A program made the position numbers and the translations under genes. Below the pieces are notes generated by a model, which saw only the letters and a list, made by a program, of their open reading frames with translations, had not been told where the DNA came from and did not search any database. 45,980 nucleotides of DNA from IMG/VR virus record IMGVR_UViG_2529292882_000016. One strand, written 5' to 3'. Below are positions 7,142 through 42,545 of the stretch, in pieces. How positions within the stretch are numbered: position 1 is the stretch's first letter; every line of letters begins with the position of its first letter. Source of the stretch: a virus (lineage: Duplodnaviria; Heunggongvirae; Uroviricota; Caudoviricetes).

Positions 7142-8223
7142 TATTTACTCCTTACCGGGTCATAAGCCTGCCATGTGATCTCCCCGAGCACCGGAAGCTC
7201 AGTTTCCCCCAGGTCAATATCCGATGAAGGGTCGATAAGTCGATGGGCCACCTCACCTGCAGATAAACTGATAGCCTCGCTGATTCTGGACAGATACATG
7301 CGCCCTTCCGGCACACCATCCCGGAACATCAGCGCATTCAGTTCTGATTTTATTGCCGCCCTGATCTGCGGTGTGTCTTTCGATAACGCAATCGTCATCG
7401 GAATGACTTTTTCTGTGGCACCGAATACATACAATCCGCTTCCGGCAACAGGTGCCAGAGGAAGGATGTGGTCCCTGACTGCGTTAATCACGCTTTCATC
7501 CGGGGCCGGGTGTTCCGGATCGTTTGTCGCCACCATCACGCCAACCGTTCCAATCCCTTTCCAGTGTCTGAAAGTCCATGCACGGTTAATACCCTGAACT
7601 TCTTTCGCCCAGATAACATAATCAGGGTCTGCGCCCCCCTGTGGAATGTAGTAATAACGTTCCATAACGCGGGCACGCCATATTTCCAGATTTTCAATAT
7701 CTTCACCGTCTGTAATGGTGTCTGCGTACCCTGTGGACGGCAGACCACTGACGGGTGTTCCCAGCTGCATGGCAATACCATCATCCGTATTCCCCGCCGA
7801 TCCCGGTTCGTCTGCCACAACAGGCACCCGGAGAAGACCATCGGCTGCGGTCACCGTCGCCGTCGTGGTGAAGGTCACCTGATCATCACGCTGGATCTGC
7901 GTTCCCGCCGGCAATACCGGCGCCCCCTCTACGCCATCCCAGCGCACAAATCCCCGGGCTGCCACCGCATCTTTTCGCGGGCAGCGTTTGATTCTGGCGT
8001 GCCGGTACAGCCAGTCTTCATCACACATGTCCGGTAACAGATTTCTGGCAAGATAATCGATATACCCGTACAACGTGTGCACAGCTGCAGCCTGTACACG
8101 GGCGTACACTTCCGCATCCATACGACGAAGCAGCGTATCCTGCTCAAAGCGGGTTAATAAATCACTCCGGATCATAGAAATAAGTTGCGGAAGGCCGGGG
8201 CGATAAAACTGACTGTCAGCCAT
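7141..8223 (-). CDS. Baseplate J-like protein (Mu gp47-like, 360 aa)
   Basis: Size and synteny within a Mu-like baseplate operon; start overlaps upstream gene stop. Confidence 0.65.
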   Translation of the reverse strand: MADSQFYRPGLPQLISMIRSDLLTRFEQDTLLRRMDAEVYARVQAAAVHTLYGYIDYLARNLLPDMCDEDWLYRHARIKRCPRKDAVAARGFVRWDGVEGAPVLPAGTQIQRDDQVTFTTTATVTAADGLLRVPVVADEPGSAGNTDDGIAMQLGTPVSGLPSTGYADTITDGEDIENLEIWRARVMERYYYIPQGGADPDYVIWAKEVQGINRAWTFRHWKGIGTVGVMVATNDPEHPAPDESVINAVRDHILPLAPVAGSGLYVFGATEKVIPMTIALSKDTPQIRAAIKSELNALMFRDGVPEGRMYLSRISEAISLSAGEVAHRLIDPSSDIDLGETELPVLGEITWQAYDPVRSK

Positions 8224-19080: not shown

Positions 19081-19761
19081 TTAAAATTTAAGATTTTTCA
19101 GTGCATTCAGTGCGGCATCCACATCCTCAGCATCACGCAGGGATAAAGCGCCATATCCCCCGGCCATGAATGCTTTGGCCTGGGTTCGCGAGAGTCCAAC
19201 ATCGCGCAGGACTCGCTCAATAATTTTCTGATCAGGGATCTCCCCACGCGCCAGCGCATTTTTCACATCGCTGATGCGTGCCTCATCATTGGAAGGAAAC
19301 GTCACCAGACTGACCTCCCACAAGTCGATCTCTTTCAGCAGGAATACCCCTTTTTCACGGTCGTACTCCCAGTCTTTCAGGATGTAGCCAATAGAAAGGC
19401 CGGTTAAAGAACCGGCCTTCATATGGGCATGTGCACGTTTTGCCAGGGGATCATCATCAACGAGTAATCGCCCCCTGACATAAAGCCCGACATCATCTTC
19501 TTTCATTTCGGTGTACACACCGATGGGCTCATCCATGCGGTGCTGCCAGAGCAACGCAGGCAGCGCCTTTTTTTCGCTCCATTTCTGGAGTGTTGTGGTA
19601 AAGGCTCCGGGGACCACCACATCATCGTGGCTGTCCTTAACACCAAAAACAGAACCGTAACCTTCAAATTCCCCGGAATCACTGACGGATTTCAGGTTCA
19701 GCGGTATATCAAGACGCTGTTTTGTCTGCATCTCCACTCTCCTTTTTCTTACCGTTGTCAT
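19081..19761 (-). CDS. Prohead protease, HK97 family (226 aa)
   Basis: Between portal and capsid genes; N-terminal region (GYGSVFGVKDSHDDVVVPGAF) typical of prohead serine proteases. Confidence 0.75.
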   Translation of the reverse strand: MTTVRKRRVEMQTKQRLDIPLNLKSVSDSGEFEGYGSVFGVKDSHDDVVVPGAFTTTLQKWSEKKALPALLWQHRMDEPIGVYTEMKEDDVGLYVRGRLLVDDDPLAKRAHAHMKAGSLTGLSIGYILKDWEYDREKGVFLLKEIDLWEVSLVTFPSNDEARISDVKNALARGEIPDQKIIERVLRDVGLSRTQAKAFMAGGYGALSLRDAEDVDAALNALKNLKF

Positions 19762-20950
19762 CGCCAGCAGAGGGACTGGTGGTCATGTTCATCGGTGTCA
19801 GATACACATCACCGCCCGGTCGGGGATTCATATCTTCCAGATCACGGCAGTCATTAGGGGAATAAATCCCCCAGTTGATCCCCGTGGCATACGCTTCAAA
19901 GCGGGATTTCATGTCGCCACGCAACAATGCTCCGGCATTAAATTTGGCGTAAAATTTTCCCTGCTTGCTCTCTCTGACCAGCCCTGTATTGATCCGCTGC
20001 TCAATACGGGTCAGATACGGCACAAGGGAATAGTTAATGAAACCAAGCCCCAGCTCTTCAATATTGTTGAAGGTGGCGCGATCGGTGTTCTGCACCATAT
20101 GCAGCGGCACGCGGAACAGGCGACAGATTTCTTCCAGCTGAAACTTGCGGGTTTCCAGGAACTGGCTGTCCTCGGCATTCAGTGCCACCGTTTTCCAGTC
20201 CAGCCCCATTTCCAGAATCATCGGACGATGAGAGTTTCCCAGCCCGACATGCCGTTCCTCAAAATCCTTTTTGATACGCGCATAAGCCTGGTCAGAAAGT
20301 TGTTGATCCGTACGCAACACACCGGATGTTACCGCGCCATTGCCAAACAATCTGGCACCATGCTCCTCGGTTGCCGCTGCCAGTGAAATGGCCTCGCGCG
20401 CATATGCAATGGGATTCAGACCGACAAGTCCATCCAGCGTCAGGGTACGCACATGCCAGATTTCATTCTGGGTCAGCACATCCACGGAACCATCCGGAAA
20501 CGTCACCTGATAAACCGGCTGCCACTGGCTGTTCAGCTTCGGTTCCACACAGCCCGGATCTATCGGAAGAAGCTCCACCACTTCCCCCAGTGCCTTTACC
20601 TTGTAGGCGTAAAAATTACCCCGCAGACACAGGCAGACGATAACCAGTTCCCAGAATTCCTGCGGCGTCATGTAGCCATTGGGTTTTGCCGAAATCAGCT
20701 TATGCAGCCGTTCATCCACCGCCCGTGTTTTAAGGGTGCCGCTGATTTTGTAGAGACTGCAGGGCAGCATACCAACAGACTCAGCCAGCACCCTGACGCA
20801 GGAATAGACCGCCGTCAGTCGCATGGCCCGCTGGCTGCTGATCCGCTTTCCGGTATAGGTGTCGTATGACAACCCCAGCTCTTCCGCAAGCATCCCGGGC
20901 GTTGTGACGGGGGTGTTATTTTTGCGTTGAAAAAGCCCCTGGAAAAACAT
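19709..20950 (-). CDS. Portal protein (413 aa)
   Basis: Downstream of terminase large subunit; size and composition typical of HK97-family portals. Confidence 0.8.
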   Translation of the reverse strand: MFFQGLFQRKNNTPVTTPGMLAEELGLSYDTYTGKRISSQRAMRLTAVYSCVRVLAESVGMLPCSLYKISGTLKTRAVDERLHKLISAKPNGYMTPQEFWELVIVCLCLRGNFYAYKVKALGEVVELLPIDPGCVEPKLNSQWQPVYQVTFPDGSVDVLTQNEIWHVRTLTLDGLVGLNPIAYAREAISLAAATEEHGARLFGNGAVTSGVLRTDQQLSDQAYARIKKDFEERHVGLGNSHRPMILEMGLDWKTVALNAEDSQFLETRKFQLEEICRLFRVPLHMVQNTDRATFNNIEELGLGFINYSLVPYLTRIEQRINTGLVRESKQGKFYAKFNAGALLRGDMKSRFEAYATGINWGIYSPNDCRDLEDMNPRPGGDVYLTPMNMTTSPSAGDDNGKKKESGDADKTAS

Positions 20951-21143: not shown

Positions 21144-22901
21144 TTAAAGCGAGCGAATACCAACGCTGACCAGATGCTCAGACAGATCCGGCTCCGGTTC
21201 ACCGCCATTGACCAGCATCCGGCTCATTGCTGTAAACATCGCCACAGGGCCGTCGATTTTGGCTTCCAGCGTGGATTTATTCGGGAAGATATTGTTGTTT
21301 TTGTCCGGTTTCACCGTAACGTTAGACATCATCCAGTTCATGACCGGGTGATTGCTGTGGTGGAAACGTCCGGCATAGACCAGTGATTCCGTTTCCTTCA
21401 TGGCCTCTGACAGATTGCGGACCGTCTGCGGAACTTCCACCAGCGGTATACCTTCTTCAGCCAGCGCCAGACTGAACTGCATTGCGCTCCACGGGTCAAA
21501 TCCCAGTTCCCTCAGGTTTTCACCGCCAATCCATTCCAGCAGGTCACTTTTTATCTGAGTATGATCGATAACATCACCATCCGTCAGGATGAGCTTATCC
21601 ATCTCCGCCCACTTCCGGTAAAGTTCTGCCTGCTGCCGTGAGCATCGTTCCAGCCGTCCTTCCGGAAGCCAGAATTTAAAATCGGCATGAACATGCCCGT
21701 TATCCGTTCGCCAGAGTTTTGCCGCCGCACAGATATCAATCTTATGAGCAAGGTCGACGCCGACCCACATGGGATATGTTTTCAGCTCATGCTGTGGAGC
21801 GATGTATTCACACTTCTCCCACTTAATCATATCCATCCAGGCAGACTCGGCAGTGACCCACACATTCATGTGTTTGGTAAAAAAATTCACCCGCGCAGAG
21901 ACCTGTTCTTTCGCTTTTTTCGCCAGACGACGCAGATCATCCCAGCGTTTACAGATGCCCAGGCCGGGATTCGCTTTCTGCCAGACCGTTTCATCAAACG
22001 GATCATCTCCCTCATCGAGTGTGTAAATAATCGCAAAGTAGGAGTCGTCTTTTACCGCGCCCTCCACGTCGCTGTTATAGCCTCGCAATACCTTGATGGC
22101 GTAATCGCGTTGCTCGTAACAAATCCCTTCCTTGTTAAAGCCCGCCGTGGTGATACCAAATAACAGGGACTGCAGACGGGCACCGGTTGCCGTTTCCAGA
22201 ACGTCCCACACGTCGCGGGTTTTATGTGCATGCAGCTCATCAATAATGGCGCAGTGGATGTTCAGACCGTCCAGGTTGTTTGCATCCGAGGAAAGCGGTT
22301 CAAATTTTGATGCGCTCTGCTCCTGGTAAATCGCCAGCTTGTTGAAATCAAACAACCGCCCGAGTGTCGACCGGGCTTTCCTGACCATATTTTTGGCGTC
22401 TTCAAACACAATTCTGGCCTGGTCACGCGTGGTTGCGGCTGAATACACCTCAGCCCCGCCTTCACCATCTGCCCCCGTCATATACAGACCGATACCCGAT
22501 GACAGGGTTGATTTTGCGTTTTTACGGGCGACTTCGTTGTACGCTGTCCGGAACCGGCGCACCATCACCGGGCGTCCGCTGCCATCGCTGCGCATGACAA
22601 CTTCCCCGGTCTCTTCATTCACCAGCGGAATGACAAAACCAAAAATATTAATGAGGATAAAAACATGCCAGTCCATCAGTTCAATGGGCTGACCTGCCAG
22701 CGCCCCTTTTACATGGGGCACAAATTTGTAGAAATTCAGGATGTGCTGCGCACGGGGTTCACTGAAATAAATCCCCCGCTCTTCGCCGTACTTCAGATCA
22801 TCAAGAAAACGCTGGCAGGCCAGACGGACAAATTCGCCAGCGACAATTTCTCCTGCAACAACACGTTCGGCGTAGCGGATCCCGTCAGCCACTTTTGCCA
22901 T
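21144..22901 (-). CDS. Terminase large subunit (585 aa)
   Basis: Size and position after the small subunit and HNH gene; ATPase/nuclease-type composition. Confidence 0.85.
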
Positions 22902-23383
22902 CAGTCTCTCGCTTTTAAAAGCTCTGCCAGCGGATCAACATCATCCGGTCCGGCGATATTTACTTTCGCCCGGCTTGCCGGTGACATACCAAACTCTGCA
23001 AGCATCGCCCGGATCCGCTTCCAGGCATCCGCCTTCATCGCCGCAGCCGGATGTGCCTTGATCATCACATCGCCATTCTGCGTTTCCGTGCGGTAGGTAT
23101 ACCCCTCAACATCGAGTGTTTCGCAGTGATGCCGGTATTCGGTGTAGGCTTCCACCAGTAACTCAAGTGCACGCGCATCAAGCTGAGAAATGATCCCTTC
23201 CGCATTCAGCTCTTCCGCCATTCGCCTGAACCAGTACTTCCCCTGCGCCCCTAAATGCTGCGGAATTTTAGGGAGACCTTTTTCGTCCTTTTTAGCGGTT
23301 TTTTTGGAGTCTTTAACGGGGCGCTTTGAGGGGTTGCCTCGTATCAAATGCAGGCGTGGCGGGGTTTTCGGGGGTCCTGACAT
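22901..23383 (-). CDS. Terminase small subunit (160 aa)
   Basis: Basic N-terminus, immediately upstream of the large subunit with start/stop overlap. Confidence 0.7.
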   Translation of the reverse strand: MSGPPKTPPRLHLIRGNPSKRPVKDSKKTAKKDEKGLPKIPQHLGAQGKYWFRRMAEELNAEGIISQLDARALELLVEAYTEYRHHCETLDVEGYTYRTETQNGDVMIKAHPAAAMKADAWKRIRAMLAEFGMSPASRAKVNIAGPDDVDPLAELLKARD

Positions 23384-23530
23384 AATCGGTTTTACCTATC
23401 AATCGTTTGATCTCATTCCCAAAAAAAAGTTTTCGAACCTGCGGCGATGCGAGGAAGGGTTGGCGGGCGGTCCCTGACAGCCAGGGTTGCAGGGATTTGA
23501 CCCGCCCCTCCCCACAAGTGAGAATAATTA

Positions 23531-23881
23531 TCACCTGATTCGTTCGCGCGCTGTTTTCGCTTTGTGGCAGGGCCAGCACAGACTCTGCAGGTTGCTGTCT
23601 GCGTCTGTTCCGCCATGCGCTTTCGGGATGATGTGGTCGACGGTTTTCGCCTCGCTCACCACACCGACACGCAGACACAACTGACACAGACCTTTATCGC
23701 GCTTCAGAATACGGGCACGAATCACCGTCCATTTTGAGCCATAGCCACGCTGGTGGCGGCTCAGTCCGCGCTGGTGCTGCACCCAGCCTTCACCACGATG
23801 TTTATCGCAGTAGCCAGAGCTGTCTGTCGTGGTGCCTGCGCAGCCTCGCTTACGGCATGCGCGGGGGATTCGTGATGGCAT
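23531..23881 (-). CDS. HNH endonuclease (116 aa)
   Basis: Cys-rich zinc finger plus ...DHIIPKAHGGTDADSNLQSLCWPCH... HNH motif; typical partner of HK97-like terminases. Confidence 0.85.
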   Translation of the reverse strand: MPSRIPRACRKRGCAGTTTDSSGYCDKHRGEGWVQHQRGLSRHQRGYGSKWTVIRARILKRDKGLCQLCLRVGVVSEAKTVDHIIPKAHGGTDADSNLQSLCWPCHKAKTARERIR

Positions 23882-26221: not shown

Positions 26222-26257
26222 ATCCTGAAGTACGTTTATCTATTGATATCTATAGAA

Positions 26258-27349
26258 ATGAAGAAAATCGAAAAACTGTTCACTGAAGTAATACGGAAGT
26301 TGCGCCATAAGAAATTTATGCGCTCGATAGCTAGTAAAAGAAGCACAACAGAAAGAAAACTAAAACGTAATGGAAGTTTAAAAAAAATCTCTCCAGAAAA
26401 AATACTTGCTCCAACCATACTTGATATTTACAAGGCGGAATATCATGAGAATGTGGTTAATTTTATAGAAAAAATAGAAAACAAAGCAAAAACAGGAAAT
26501 AAAAAGATATATATATGCTTCAGAAATACAATTCACATATCGGCTGCTGCTGGCTTATTTCTTCTTGCAAAACTAGAGACATTAAAAAGCAATCATAAGG
26601 GCTTAAAATATATCGTAGCCAAACCTCCAATTAAAACTTCATCAAAAGGAGAGCAGCACGTTGTTGATTCTGTTTTGAACAGAATCGGTATCTATGCAGC
26701 ATTAGGTGTTAAATCAAGAGAAATGAGAGAAACTCCGTCTGTAAAATGTTGGGAGGTAATTCGTGGCGAACTCGTAGATTCGGAAATTGCGGGGAACTTA
26801 TTAGAAACAATCACAGAAAGAATGGGTACCGATTATACAGATTTATATCGCCCCTTGATAGAAGCCATGTCTAATTCAGTAGAGCATGCATATCGAGACG
26901 ATTTATATGACTCAAATAAAAATAATAATAAAAATAAATGGTGGTGCTTTGCTGCAATTATGAACAACAAGTTAATATTACTAATTTGTGACCTCGGTGT
27001 CGGTATACCTAAAACGTTAAAACTCACTCAAGGTGAAAAGGTTCTTGCAAAACTAACCGAGTTCCTTGGTAAGCCATTAGTCCTTGATTCAGAACATATA
27101 AAAGCCTCATTGCAAGTTAAACGAACCCGAACAAAGCTTGGATACAGAGGGAAAGGAGGAACTGATTTACAATCTATCATAGAAAACTTTGAAAATGCAC
27201 AATTACGGATTATATCCAACAAAGGAAATTACAGATATACTCATCGTAAGAAAGCAAGACCAGAGTTAATGTGGGATGCCAAACATTCCATCAACGGTAC
27301 TATAGTTGAATGGAGCGTACCGCTACCAAATGAAGGAGACCCCCAATGA
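26258..27349 (+). CDS. GHKL-superfamily ATPase/kinase, RsbW/SpoIIAB-like C-terminal domain with ~190-aa N-terminal extension (363 aa from ATG 26258)
   Basis: N-box-like EAMSNSVEHAY, G1 box ICDLGVGIP (DxGxG), G2-like GYRGKGGTDL, with appropriate spacing; AT-rich; stop overlaps next gene's ATG (ATGA). Confidence 0.75.
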   Translation: MKKIEKLFTEVIRKLRHKKFMRSIASKRSTTERKLKRNGSLKKISPEKILAPTILDIYKAEYHENVVNFIEKIENKAKTGNKKIYICFRNTIHISAAAGLFLLAKLETLKSNHKGLKYIVAKPPIKTSSKGEQHVVDSVLNRIGIYAALGVKSREMRETPSVKCWEVIRGELVDSEIAGNLLETITERMGTDYTDLYRPLIEAMSNSVEHAYRDDLYDSNKNNNKNKWWCFAAIMNNKLILLICDLGVGIPKTLKLTQGEKVLAKLTEFLGKPLVLDSEHIKASLQVKRTRTKLGYRGKGGTDLQSIIENFENAQLRIISNKGNYRYTHRKKARPELMWDAKHSINGTIVEWSVPLPNEGDPQ

Positions 27350-27663
27350 AAACCTTATTTATCAAGGACTTTTCAAGATTCCCGGGACCTAGATACGAAA
27401 GGTTAGGTGAAAACAGTGGCGAAAAATTCCGCGATTTATTTTTGATACCAGCACTTAGCAAAGATCCAGACTTAGTCATTGACTTTGATGGTGTTTTTGG
27501 CTATGGCTCATCTTTCCTTGAGGAGGCCTTTGGAGGTTTGGTGCGTAAAGGGATAGAGCGCGAAAAATTGGAGAAGCTTAAGAAGAATCTCAAAAGTAAA
27601 GATCAATACATTATTGAGGAAGTAATTTCATATATAGATGATGCTCTGAGAGAACTAAAATAA
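27346..27663 (+). CDS. STAS-like protein, anti-sigma-factor-antagonist-like / DUF4325-like (105 aa)
   Basis: VIDFDGVFGYGSSFLEEAFGG resembles the SpoIIAA/RsbV loop (DLSGVSFMDSSGLG) including the Ser-Ser; translationally coupled on both sides. Confidence 0.7.
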   Translation: MKTLFIKDFSRFPGPRYERLGENSGEKFRDLFLIPALSKDPDLVIDFDGVFGYGSSFLEEAFGGLVRKGIEREKLEKLKKNLKSKDQYIIEEVISYIDDALRELK

Positions 27664-28124
27664 TGGACACTGACGTTACTCAGAATTTATGGACAATGCC
27701 TGCAACGATTATAGCGATTGCTGGCATTTTTTTAACAATATTAGGCTGGATAGTCACAGCAATATTTACTCGCATTAACAACGCGAAAAATTTAAAAAAA
27801 CTAGAAATAAATAGGCTTATTGATGAGTTATTTTATAAATTAGATTTCATTTATAGCGAAATGCTTGAATTGCTGCGAGACGATAAAAAAGACAAACAAG
27901 TCCTATATTACATTTTTACATCATCAGTAAGGCATGTTGAGTTTATTTGCGAGCGAATTGAGTTATTAGACAACAAGAAAAACAAAGACAATGGATTAAT
28001 ATCTGAATTAAGGCAAGCATGCACTAACGATGCGAAATATGAAAAAGAAAAAATAGGAACAACATTACATGAAATTCAAAGCGCTAATGAAAAACTCAAA
28101 AACAAATATCTAAAATCCTTTTAA
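27663..28124 (+). CDS. Small membrane protein with N-terminal transmembrane segment and helical cytoplasmic region (153 aa)
   Basis: Hydrophobic stretch MPATIIAIAGIFLTILGWIVTAIF then Lys/Glu-rich helices; start overlaps previous stop (TAATG). Confidence 0.65.
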   Translation: MDTDVTQNLWTMPATIIAIAGIFLTILGWIVTAIFTRINNAKNLKKLEINRLIDELFYKLDFIYSEMLELLRDDKKDKQVLYYIFTSSVRHVEFICERIELLDNKKNKDNGLISELRQACTNDAKYEKEKIGTTLHEIQSANEKLKNKYLKSF

Positions 28125-39602: not shown

Positions 39603-39812
39603 GTGGGGCTGGATTGCGTACCTATATCAACCTACTGCCGCAACGCAGGAGAAACGGTTGATGCCGTTAACAAACGGATACAAAGAGGAATATGGAAAGA
39701 AGGGGTACATGTATTAAAAGTCGACGGAGTTAAAGAACGTTGGGTCGACTTAATGGAGATTACAAAATGGGCAAGAAAGAACAAGGATCACTATCTCTCC
39801 CTAGAGGAGTAA
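39603..39812 (+). CDS. xis: Excisionase-like protein (69 aa; GTG start assumed)
   Basis: Small basic protein immediately upstream of and overlapping int, as in lambda xis-int; winged-helix-like composition. Confidence 0.5.
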   Translation: MGLDCVPISTYCRNAGETVDAVNKRIQRGIWKEGVHVLKVDGVKERWVDLMEITKWARKNKDHYLSLEE

Positions 39813-40939
39813 CTATTCGCCAGCATAAAACTGGTAGCACTCTGGTTATCACTTTTACATATAAAGGGGTTCTGTGTCGGGAGCCCCTCTCCAGAATGGA
39901 AGTAAACGCGCGCGGTGTGAAGTACGCTGAGCGTCTGCTGGGAGAAATAAAAAATCAGATTATCGATGGTACCTTCGAATATGCAAAATACTTCCCCAAC
40001 TCCCAAAAGCTGGAGTTGTTCGGGGGAGTGAAAAAAAACAAAAATATAAAATCTTACCTGGATGAATACCTGATTATCTGCCAGAACCGTAACCTGTCAC
40101 CATCGACAATTAGAGGTTATGAAAAATGCCTGTCGGCGCTGTCAGCATTGCATAAATTTCATGTATCAGAACTGACACCTGCAGTACTAAAAAACTGGAT
40201 CGCCAGCAGAAAAACAAAACTGAAAACTATCCGCAATAATCTTTCATTCTTGCGCAGCGCCATAGATGAAGCGGTGACCGATGGTTTGTTAACAATAAAT
40301 CCTGTCACGCTAGTCAGCGCCAGCCGGTATCACGTATTGGACAACACACCAGGCAGTGATGATTACGAGGTCGATCCTTTTACACCAGCGGAGACGGCAG
40401 CAATCTATGACGCCTGTCATTACCCGGAATGGCGAAATCTGTTTCGCTTTGCCTTTAATACAGGACTGCGCAGCTCAGAATTGTGCGCGTTGCGCTGGAC
40501 GGATATAGACTTTATCGGCAACACCGCGCATGTTCAGACTGCAAGCGTAGTCGGGGTAATCAAAAGCACCAAAACAAAAGCCGGCACCCGCAAAGTGCAA
40601 CTGAACAGCGAAGCGCTGGCGGCTCTTCAGGCACAAAAGCCCTACACGGCGCTAAAGAGCGACTTCATATTCAGCGATCCGAAAACTCGCGCTCCTTGGG
40701 CAAACGCAGATGCGATCCGAAAAAAAGCCTGGGTACCAACCCTTAAAAAAGCTGGTGTACGCTATCGCAATCCGTACCAGACACGCCACACGTTCGCCAC
40801 TCGGCACATTAGCCAGGGCGTTAACCTGTTCTGGCTTGCTGGTCAGATGGGGCATAAAGGACCGGAAATGCTGTTCAGACATTACGGCTCTTACCTTGCA
40901 GAATACGATGGAAAAACGGCGATTTCTGCAACCCCGTAA
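39767..40939 (+). CDS. int: Tyrosine integrase, lambda Int-like (390 aa from ATG 39767)
   Basis: C-terminal catalytic region with RHTFATRHISQG...RHYGSYL (R/H/R/Y-type motifs); transcribed toward the att repeat at 41072. Confidence 0.85.
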   Translation: MGKKEQGSLSLPRGVTIRQHKTGSTLVITFTYKGVLCREPLSRMEVNARGVKYAERLLGEIKNQIIDGTFEYAKYFPNSQKLELFGGVKKNKNIKSYLDEYLIICQNRNLSPSTIRGYEKCLSALSALHKFHVSELTPAVLKNWIASRKTKLKTIRNNLSFLRSAIDEAVTDGLLTINPVTLVSASRYHVLDNTPGSDDYEVDPFTPAETAAIYDACHYPEWRNLFRFAFNTGLRSSELCALRWTDIDFIGNTAHVQTASVVGVIKSTKTKAGTRKVQLNSEALAALQAQKPYTALKSDFIFSDPKTRAPWANADAIRKKAWVPTLKKAGVRYRNPYQTRHTFATRHISQGVNLFWLAGQMGHKGPEMLFRHYGSYLAEYDGKTAISATP

Positions 40940-41303: not shown

Positions 41304-42545
41304 ATGGCAAGACAAACCAAACCTCTATCCGTTAAAGAAATAGAATCAGCCAAACCCAAGGAGGCGGACTACGTTCTCTATGATGGCGATGGCCTTGAGC
41401 TACTCATTAAATCCAGCGGGAGTAAAATCTGGCAGTTTCGCTACATTCGCCCTGTCACCAAGAAACGAGCAAAGAAGAGCATAGGCTCCTACCCGTCAGT
41501 TACCCTTGCCGATGCCAGAAACTACCGTGCAGAGTCCCGCTCACTACTGGCTAAACAGATCGATCCGCAGGAACATCAGCAAGAACAATTGCGCAGTTCG
41601 CTGGAAGCCAAAACCAACACTTTCCAACTCGTAGCTGAACGTTGGTGGAATGTGAAGAAAGCCAGTGTGACAGAGGACTATGCGGAAGATATCTGGCGCT
41701 CTCTTGAAAGAGACGTCTTTCCTGCGATTGGCGACGTTAGCGTTACAGATATTAAAGCTCATACACTGGTTCAGGCCGTACAACCGGTTCAGGCCAGAGG
41801 AGCACTGGAAACTGTTCGTCGCCTGTGCCAACGTATTAATGAGGTCATGATCTATGCCCAGAACACAGGGCTGATTGATGCTGTTCCCAGCGTTAATATC
41901 GGTAAAGCCTTCGAGAAGCCTCAGAAAAAGAACATGCCCAGCATTCGACCGGATCAGCTACCTCAGTTAATGCAGACGATGCGAACAGCCAGCATTAGCC
42001 TTTCCACACGCTGCCTGTTCATGTGGCAACTTCTTACTATTACCCGCCCTGCCGAAGCGGCTGAAGCTCTCTGGGAAGAGGTAGACATAGAAGCGCGAGA
42101 GTGGAAGATTCCTGCAGCACGCATGAAAATGAACCGCGACCATACTGTTCCATTGTCAGATGAAGCAATTGCGATACTAGAGATGATGAAGCCGTTAAGT
42201 GGAAATCGAGAATTTATCTTTCCCAGCCGCATCAAGCCAAACCAGCCGATGAACAGTCAGACCGTAAACGCATCGCTAAAACGCGCAGGTTTTGGTGGGG
42301 TGCTCGTTTCACACGGCCTGCGATCTATCGCCAGTACAGCCCTTAATGAGCAGGGATTTCCACCTGATGTTATTGAGGCTGCACTTGCTCATGTGGATAA
42401 GAATGAGGTTCGTCGTGCGTATAACCGTAGTGATTATCTTGAGCAGCGACGGCCTATGATGCAGTGGTGGGCTGATTTTGTGATGGCTGCAGATCACGGT
42501 AGTATGATTGAAGGAGGGATAAAGGCAATGCGGTTAGTTGGATGA
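41304..42545 (+). CDS. intA: P4-type tyrosine integrase, CP4-57 IntA-like (413 aa)
   Basis: N-terminus MARQTKPLSVKEIESAKPKEADYVLYDGDGLELLIKSSGSKIWQFRY and C-terminus ...HVDKNEVRRAYNRSDYLEQRRPMMQWWADF typical of P4-family integrases; about 200 bp after the ssrA 3' end. Confidence 0.85.
   Translation: MARQTKPLSVKEIESAKPKEADYVLYDGDGLELLIKSSGSKIWQFRYIRPVTKKRAKKSIGSYPSVTLADARNYRAESRSLLAKQIDPQEHQQEQLRSSLEAKTNTFQLVAERWWNVKKASVTEDYAEDIWRSLERDVFPAIGDVSVTDIKAHTLVQAVQPVQARGALETVRRLCQRINEVMIYAQNTGLIDAVPSVNIGKAFEKPQKKNMPSIRPDQLPQLMQTMRTASISLSTRCLFMWQLLTITRPAEAAEALWEEVDIEAREWKIPAARMKMNRDHTVPLSDEAIAILEMMKPLSGNREFIFPSRIKPNQPMNSQTVNASLKRAGFGGVLVSHGLRSIASTALNEQGFPPDVIEAALAHVDKNEVRRAYNRSDYLEQRRPMMQWWADFVMAADHGSMIEGGIKAMRLVG

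Follow-up and report, generated by a model that had tools for sequence, protein, structure and literature searches.

Packaging module around the terS-HNH gap

In the DNA stretch analysed here (45,980 nucleotides, hereafter the window), a gap of 147 bp separates the small terminase gene (terS) from an HNH endonuclease gene, which raises the question of whether phage DNA is cut and packaged from this gap and, if so, at which bases. A preliminary description had put the gap forward as a candidate packaging (cos) site, pointing to an A8 run and a GC-rich, dyad-containing segment. Here, the landmarks on which that proposal was built were all recovered: the gap spans 23384-23530 and is bounded exactly by the terS start codon and the HNH stop codon, the A8 run lies at 23421-23428, and the quoted GC-rich segment of 47 nt occurs word for word at 23462-23508. 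The order of genes on the minus strand is HNH, the gap, terS, terL and portal (19709-20950), and all members of the packaging and head set (HNH, terS, terL, portal, S78 protease and HK97-fold capsid) are encoded on this strand, with endolysin and holin genes just upstream of the HNH gene. The genes adjoining the gap, together with terL, are as follows.

23531-23881, minus strand: HNH endonuclease gene, 116 aa, directly upstream of the cos region in phage orientation (Pfam HNH, PF01844, E 1.7e-16)
22901-23383, minus strand: terS, P27-family small terminase, 160 aa (Pfam Terminase_4, PF05119, E 3.3e-26)
21144-22901, minus strand: terL, large terminase, 585 aa (Pfam TerL_ATPase and TerL_nuclease domains)

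Sequence comparisons revealed that the HNH protein is 34% identical to gp74 of HK97 over 70 aa (E 2e-10) and that the large terminase (TerL) is 29% identical to HK97 gp2 over 455 aa (E 3e-41), and the homologs of the small terminase (TerS) are named P27-family small terminase in their sources. The prophage adjoins E. coli smpB and ssrA (99.8% match), with the ssrA tmRNA located at 698-1060 by an ARAGORN search of the whole window, and is a mosaic of phiP27-like and phi467-like sequence. Based on its gene content, the smpB/ssrA setting and an integrase gene at 39740-40939, the element is an E. coli prophage of ~40 kb that appears complete.

Alignment of the gap with phage ends

Ungapped alignment of the gap with related phages resolved the following features, where the phage orientation corresponds to the minus strand of the window.

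23501-23513, minus strand: G-box, GGGGAGGGGCGGG, the upstream conserved box, whose plus strand is the CCCGCCCC arm of the reported dyad
23495-23500, minus strand: TCAAAT hexamer closing the G-box, (T/G/A)(C/A)AAA(T/A) in all relatives
23473-23494, minus strand: spacer of 22 nt, variable in sequence and fixed in length, holding the inner dyad arms
23470-23472, minus strand: GAC flank, with (G/T)AC before the cohesive end in every relative
23460-23469, minus strand: predicted cosN, a 10-nt 3' cohesive end 5'-CGCCCGCCAA-3', from alignment to the phiP27, SfI and HK97 ends
23421-23446, minus strand: downstream core CGCCGCAGGTTCGAAAAC-TTTTTTTT (-T8), +14 to +39, containing the A8 run
23397-23409, plus strand: TATCAATCGTTTG, which matches the IHF consensus WATCAANNNNTTR at every position and lies between the T-tract and the terS ribosome-binding site

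The columns of this alignment were anchored by relatives whose ends are mapped or annotated. The record of the Stx2e phage phiP27 (NC_003356), to which window positions 23462-23540 are 98.7% identical, annotates a 10-nt cos-site at 21806-21815, CGCCCGCCCC, which aligns to window 23469-23460. The cohesive end of SfI was identified as the 10-nt TGCCCGCCCC by run-off sequencing of virion DNA (PMC3636060), and the same 10-mer is present in the sequences of SfV, ST64B and SKA5. In the HK97 record, the terminus reads ...GAC CGCCGCCAAA (...GACCGCCGCCAAA) and the sequence restarts with GTTTGAATTT, where CGCCGCCAAA again aligns to window 23469-23460; the published HK97 landmarks, namely T16, G:C at 21 and A:T at 24-29, agree with the numbering of the record (PMC11331095, PMC9410871). 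The linear record of Proteus phage vB_PvuS_Pm34, whose TerS is 62% identical to that of the window and whose downstream core is the same, breaks exactly between GAC and CGCCCCCTTA; in phage orientation it starts with CGCCCCCTTA CCTCTTTTCAC... and ends with ...TCAAAT, 22 nt and GAC. The phiP27 annotation, the SfI ends, the HK97 ends and the Pm34 record ends thus all occupy identical columns of the ungapped alignment.

From these columns we infer the exact nick positions in the prophage: the predicted nicks separate 23470 from 23469 on the bottom strand and 23460 from 23459 on the top strand, such that 23459 becomes position +1 and the terS ATG is located 76 nt past the predicted top-strand nick. 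The last two bases of the overhang are AA in the window vs CC in phiP27, and the mapped ends belong to other alleles. The window allele CGCCCGCCAA itself recurs in 15 IMG/VR loci, which are independent viral contigs, with the downstream core intact in each.

The gap is therefore homologous, position for position, to mapped or annotated cos ends, and we conclude that it is very probably the cos site of an apparently complete ~40-kb HK97/phiP27-like prophage beside ssrA in E. coli, in support of the original proposal. The site belongs with the HNH-associated cos sites of the HK97/P27/SfV class, a kind that is already known. It lies between the HNH gene and terS, where an HK97-like terL/portal/protease/capsid module begins, it carries (G/T)AC followed by a 10-mer starting with (C/T)GCC that is homologous to the mapped ends, and it displays the G-rich box and TCAAAT 22 nt upstream of the nick, the latter being a feature derived from this family alignment and not from published work. 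As packaging mechanisms of other kinds, pac/headful packaging was rejected, given that HK97, whose TerL is a homolog of the one in the window, is a cos phage and that the relatives have defined ends, and a lambda-type cos was rejected on account of the PF05119 TerS, the HK97-like TerL and the adjacent HNH gene.

Following induction, concatemeric phage DNA would be recognised at this gap, where the P27-family TerS may bind the core (+14 to +39, 23446-23421), in which a G/C-rich part precedes an A/T tract. Aided by the HNH protein, the HK97-like TerL would then nick the two strands 10 nt apart, at 23460/23459 on the phage top strand and at 23470/23469 on the other, to yield 10-nt 3' cohesive ends with the sequence 5'-CGCCCGCCAA-3'. 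Starting at the nick, packaging would enter terS first and continue through terL and the head genes toward lower window coordinates, and would halt at the next cos, with the G-box and spacer as the last DNA to be packaged.

It is improbable, though conceivable, that the gap is a cos site by descent that no longer functions, either since the prophage is defective or since cleavage is blocked by the AA ending of the overhang or by changes elsewhere. Function is read here from sequence, and decayed copies appear to exist, as in the chromosomal copy of Proteus vulgaris (L099; CP054157, ~1110-1130), which carries TAAT where others have GAC right before the cohesive end and possibly represents a cos that has decayed within a defective prophage; a second integrase gene after the prophage also hints at a complex locus. 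However, all packaging and head genes of the window are full-length ORFs with strong family matches, the exact overhang allele recurs with an intact core in the 15 independent contigs, and the close relatives are deposited as phage genomes, with a DNA identity of about 88-90% from terS to HNH. A cos region that is cut at other positions, e.g. inside the G-box or beside the T-tract, is very unlikely; the allelic difference of the mapped ends would leave room for such a shift, as would the conservation of the G-box, which is at least as high as that of the predicted overhang, but four independent sources (phiP27, SfI, HK97 and Pm34) put the ends on the same columns.

Structural potential of the GC-rich dyad

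The preliminary description had laid emphasis on the GC-rich dyad, whose arms are real: the outer arms GGCGGG/CCCGCC are located at 23462-23467 / 23501-23506, the inner arms TCCCTG/CAGGGA at 23471-23476 / 23490-23495, and the minimum-energy fold pairs the G-box with cosN. The two 6-bp arm pairs and this fold could suggest that the dyad acts structurally, as a nuclease-recognised hairpin or cruciform, a terminator, or an RNA with a regulatory role located between the lysis and head genes, but we regard such a role as highly improbable. The energy of the 64-nt single-stranded DNA fold is ordinary (-13.7 kcal/mol vs -11.6 +/- 2.2 for shuffled sequences; z = -0.96), with 31/200 shuffles at least as stable. 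Moreover, the central pairs of the window fold hold in only 25-58% of the sequences across 88 distinct related sites, among which no compensating changes were found, and the HK97 spacer CTTCAAAACCTTTGCCCCAAAT has no conserved sequence in common with that of the window.

Searches for known elements led to the same outcome. No terminator-like site was found on either strand of 23200-23700, and the T8 run lies 32 nt past the predicted nick and farther still from the end of the dyad; an intrinsic terminator, which would combine a GC-rich hairpin with an immediate T run, was therefore rejected. ARAGORN found no tRNA in the gap, the ssrA tmRNA being its only find in the window, all Rfam hits were far below their gathering scores with none of weight in the gap, and a structured RNA or tRNA-derived element was rejected for want of family matches and conserved pairing. 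A G-quadruplex was also dismissed, as the G-box of the window, judged by eye, has only three G-runs. Pairing of the outer arms simply reflects the fact that the G-box and the cohesive end, each conserved in its own right, happen to be G-rich and C-rich, and the inner arms fall in the variable spacer. The structural emphasis is not supported: the dyad is incidental, and what is conserved are two separate boxes, namely the G-box and cosN.

Two modules meeting at the predicted nick

Comparison of the related sites revealed that those whose TerS proteins lack any sequence relation nevertheless have in common the G-box, its spacing and the first half of the cohesive end, whereas the sequence beyond the nick comes in types that follow the type of TerS.

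Window-type downstream sequence: TerS 58-100% identical to that of the window
SfV-type downstream sequence: TerS 24% identical
P27-type downstream sequence: TerS 18% identical
HK97-type downstream sequence: TerS with no hit to that of the window

Among 10 sites of the window type (TerS 58-100% identical), CGCCGCAGGTT(A/C)GAAAACTTTTTT is invariant. The core is nearly unchanged in Hafnia, Proteus, Xenorhabdus and Pantoea prophages, shows a few changes in a Serratia prophage, and is replaced by other sequences wherever the TerS type differs. Since the core changes along with the TerS type, the region from +14 to +39 is likely the TerS recognition site, in a cosB-like role, and the upstream half is most likely there for the TerL and HNH proteins that the sites share.

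In HK97, TerS binds +15 to +29, and both a G:C contact and the A-tract are essential for binding (PMC11331095). The position of the window core matches this HK97 site with its G:C pair and A-tract. BLASTP of the window TerS against HK97 gp1, which is not in PF05119, gave no hit, and the predicted structure of the window TerS (pLDDT 70) had no specific match to any solved structure; in view of this lack of sequence or fold similarity, the analogy with HK97 draws on position and co-variation only.

Additional support for a modular organization was obtained from the homology between the window and phiP27, which amounts to 96-99% on the HNH side and ends at 23462/23461, inside the cohesive end, with the terS side being of another type. 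Furthermore, three contigs (L022, L031 and L055) combine a window-like upstream half with a P27-type downstream half. Taken together, the homology break and these contigs indicate that cosN behaves as a point of module exchange.

The individual relatives display the same division. HK97 cos, which has a 10-nt 3' overhang and requires TerS gp1, TerL gp2 and HNH gp74, shares with the window the G-rich box and TCAAAT, the 22 nt, GAC and a 10-mer starting with CGCC, in addition to homologous TerL and HNH proteins and an A/T tract beside G:C pairs downstream of the nick. In contrast, its TerS belongs to a family other than the PF05119 of the window, its downstream sequence is unrelated, and its T-tract lies at +24 to +30 vs +32 to +39 in the window, i.e. 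~8 nt closer to the nick; the HNH gene is ~320 bp from the genome end in HK97, whereas ~70 nt separate the HNH stop from the predicted nick in the window. In phiP27, identity to the window is 96-99% across the HNH gene, the G-box, the spacer and the initial 8 nt of the cohesive end, but the last two overhang bases, the whole downstream recognition region and TerS differ. The Shigella phages SfV, SfI, SfII and SfIV and the Salmonella phage ST64B have the same G-box, 22-nt spacing and cohesive-end position; their end, TGCCCGCCCC, however, starts with T instead of C, their downstream element is ATCGTTTTTTTATACCCGCGAAAAATG, and their TerS is the distant SfV type. Phages Pm34, mEp235 and phi467, and those of Klebsiella, Morganella and Providencia, share both the TerS branch (57-99%) and the core CGCCGCAGGTT.GAAAACTTTTTT with the window, but differ in their cohesive-end alleles (CGCCCCCTTA, CGCCGCCTAG, CGCCGCCTGA and others), and distant Pm34-type members carry GGGGTCCCC or a similar G/C run after the T-tract, replacing the E. 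coli-type IHF-like sequence.

In the record of Escherichia phage Fraca (LR597645.1; L009), the first ~125 nt (1-125) resemble an internal terL coding fragment that abuts the downstream half of cos, with the upstream half sitting at the end of the record; the start of this record resembles an artefact of assembly at the ends of the genome.

A G-box at a fixed distance from the nick

In an ungapped anchored alignment, the G-box is conserved in E. coli, Shigella, Salmonella, Klebsiella, Morganella, Proteus and HK97 sequences, and the 30 nt upstream of it are unconserved. The layout of G-box, hexamer, 22 nt, and GAC with the 10-mer was found in all 81 viral contigs reached through the HNH protein, including 11 loci in which GCAAAT replaces TCAAAT, and in five Enterobacterales prophages reached through TerS homologs (Hafnia, Serratia, Xenorhabdus, Pantoea and the Proteus copy with the damaged GAC). 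The spacer measures exactly 22 nt in all reference phages and in 81/81 HNH-linked loci.

The spacing was further assessed by scanning viral contigs for GGGTCAAAT followed, after a gap of 12-32 nt, by GACCGCC. Among the matches listed, 59 had a gap of 22 vs 0-9 at each other length, and among the listed matches with a G-rich box the gap was exactly 22 in 52/54. The bipartite pattern occurs once in the 46-kb window vs 0.13 occurrences expected; as a conserved sequence element, the pair of boxes far exceeds chance. The cos region is present in 951/5426 complete E. coli genomes. One contig, L163 (IMGVR_UViG_3300034682_000106, 7476-7512), has a 21-nt spacer, the only such G-box site among the matches listed, and its downstream element resembles the P27 type.

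Sites of the HK97, P27 and SfV types all place the G-box exactly 22 bp before the nick, regardless of the TerS family. A plausible explanation, which we offer tentatively and would not yet favor, is that the G-box with its hexamer (GGGGAGGGGCGGG-TCAAAT) represents a second, uncharacterised recognition element of the whole cos class that is read by TerL and HNH and not by TerS. Such an element could position the staggered nicks or could act as a termination signal like lambda cosQ, and its reading by the shared TerL and HNH proteins, if true, would account for module exchange taking place precisely at the cohesive end. The HK97 literature examined holds no mention of the G-box; earlier literature may already describe it, and the fixed-distance G-box is the sole point of this analysis that may be new.

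These findings suggest that the prophage packages by cos and provide a base-exact prediction of its virion ends, which should aid in linearising and annotating the module carried by ~1 in 6 complete E. coli genomes. A single pattern, namely G-box, 22 nt, and GAC with CGCC, finds this class of cos sites, which can be classified by TerS type from the sequence beyond the nick. For the HK97 in vitro packaging system, in which published work has centred on the downstream TerS site, the conserved G-box is a clear target.

Comparison with lambda cos and a possible bending site

Lambda cos is composed of cosQ, cosN and cosB, generates a 12-nt 5' overhang, contains the IHF site I1 and has no HNH partner. 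Its functional logic resembles that of the window site: a nick position is combined with a TerS-specific region (in the window, the likely TerS site) on the DNA that enters first and with a conserved element, upstream of the nick, on the DNA that enters last, and a site for a host bending protein is possibly a further shared part. Unlike the window site, it has an overhang of different polarity and length, terminases that are unrelated in sequence, and no G-box at a fixed 22 nt, and the window site lies outside the lambda cos family. The lambda cohesive end GGGCGGCGACCT and the reverse complement of the HK97-type end (TTTGGCGGCGGTC in HK97) presumably have the core GGCGGCG in common, and the lambda end would thus be opposite in orientation relative to the terminase genes.

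The IHF consensus match at 23397-23409 may be a bending site, a possibility to which we assign low confidence. Matches to this consensus occur at chance level in the whole window (2 vs 2.55 expected). The match is retained in 65/73 loci with the E. coli-type downstream sequence, where changes fall at N and R positions only, and no such match is present in the mEp235, Klebsiella and Morganella sites.

Additional features of the prophage

Between the lysis genes and a DnaB-like helicase gene, an island of three genes on the opposite (plus) strand, at 26243-28124, has a GC content of 33-41% vs 50-55% in its flanks. Its genes match phrog_3364 (368 aa), a DUF4325 STAS-like protein (105 aa) and phrog_34309 (153 aa). 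Pfam gave no match for the 368-aa phrog_3364 protein, nor did a PADLOC search of the island, which could be a moron or an undescribed defence cassette. At the end of the prophage far from ssrA, two tyrosine-integrase genes are arranged in tandem (39740-40939 and 41304-42545), which suggests a second integrated element, or a remnant of one, beside the prophage.
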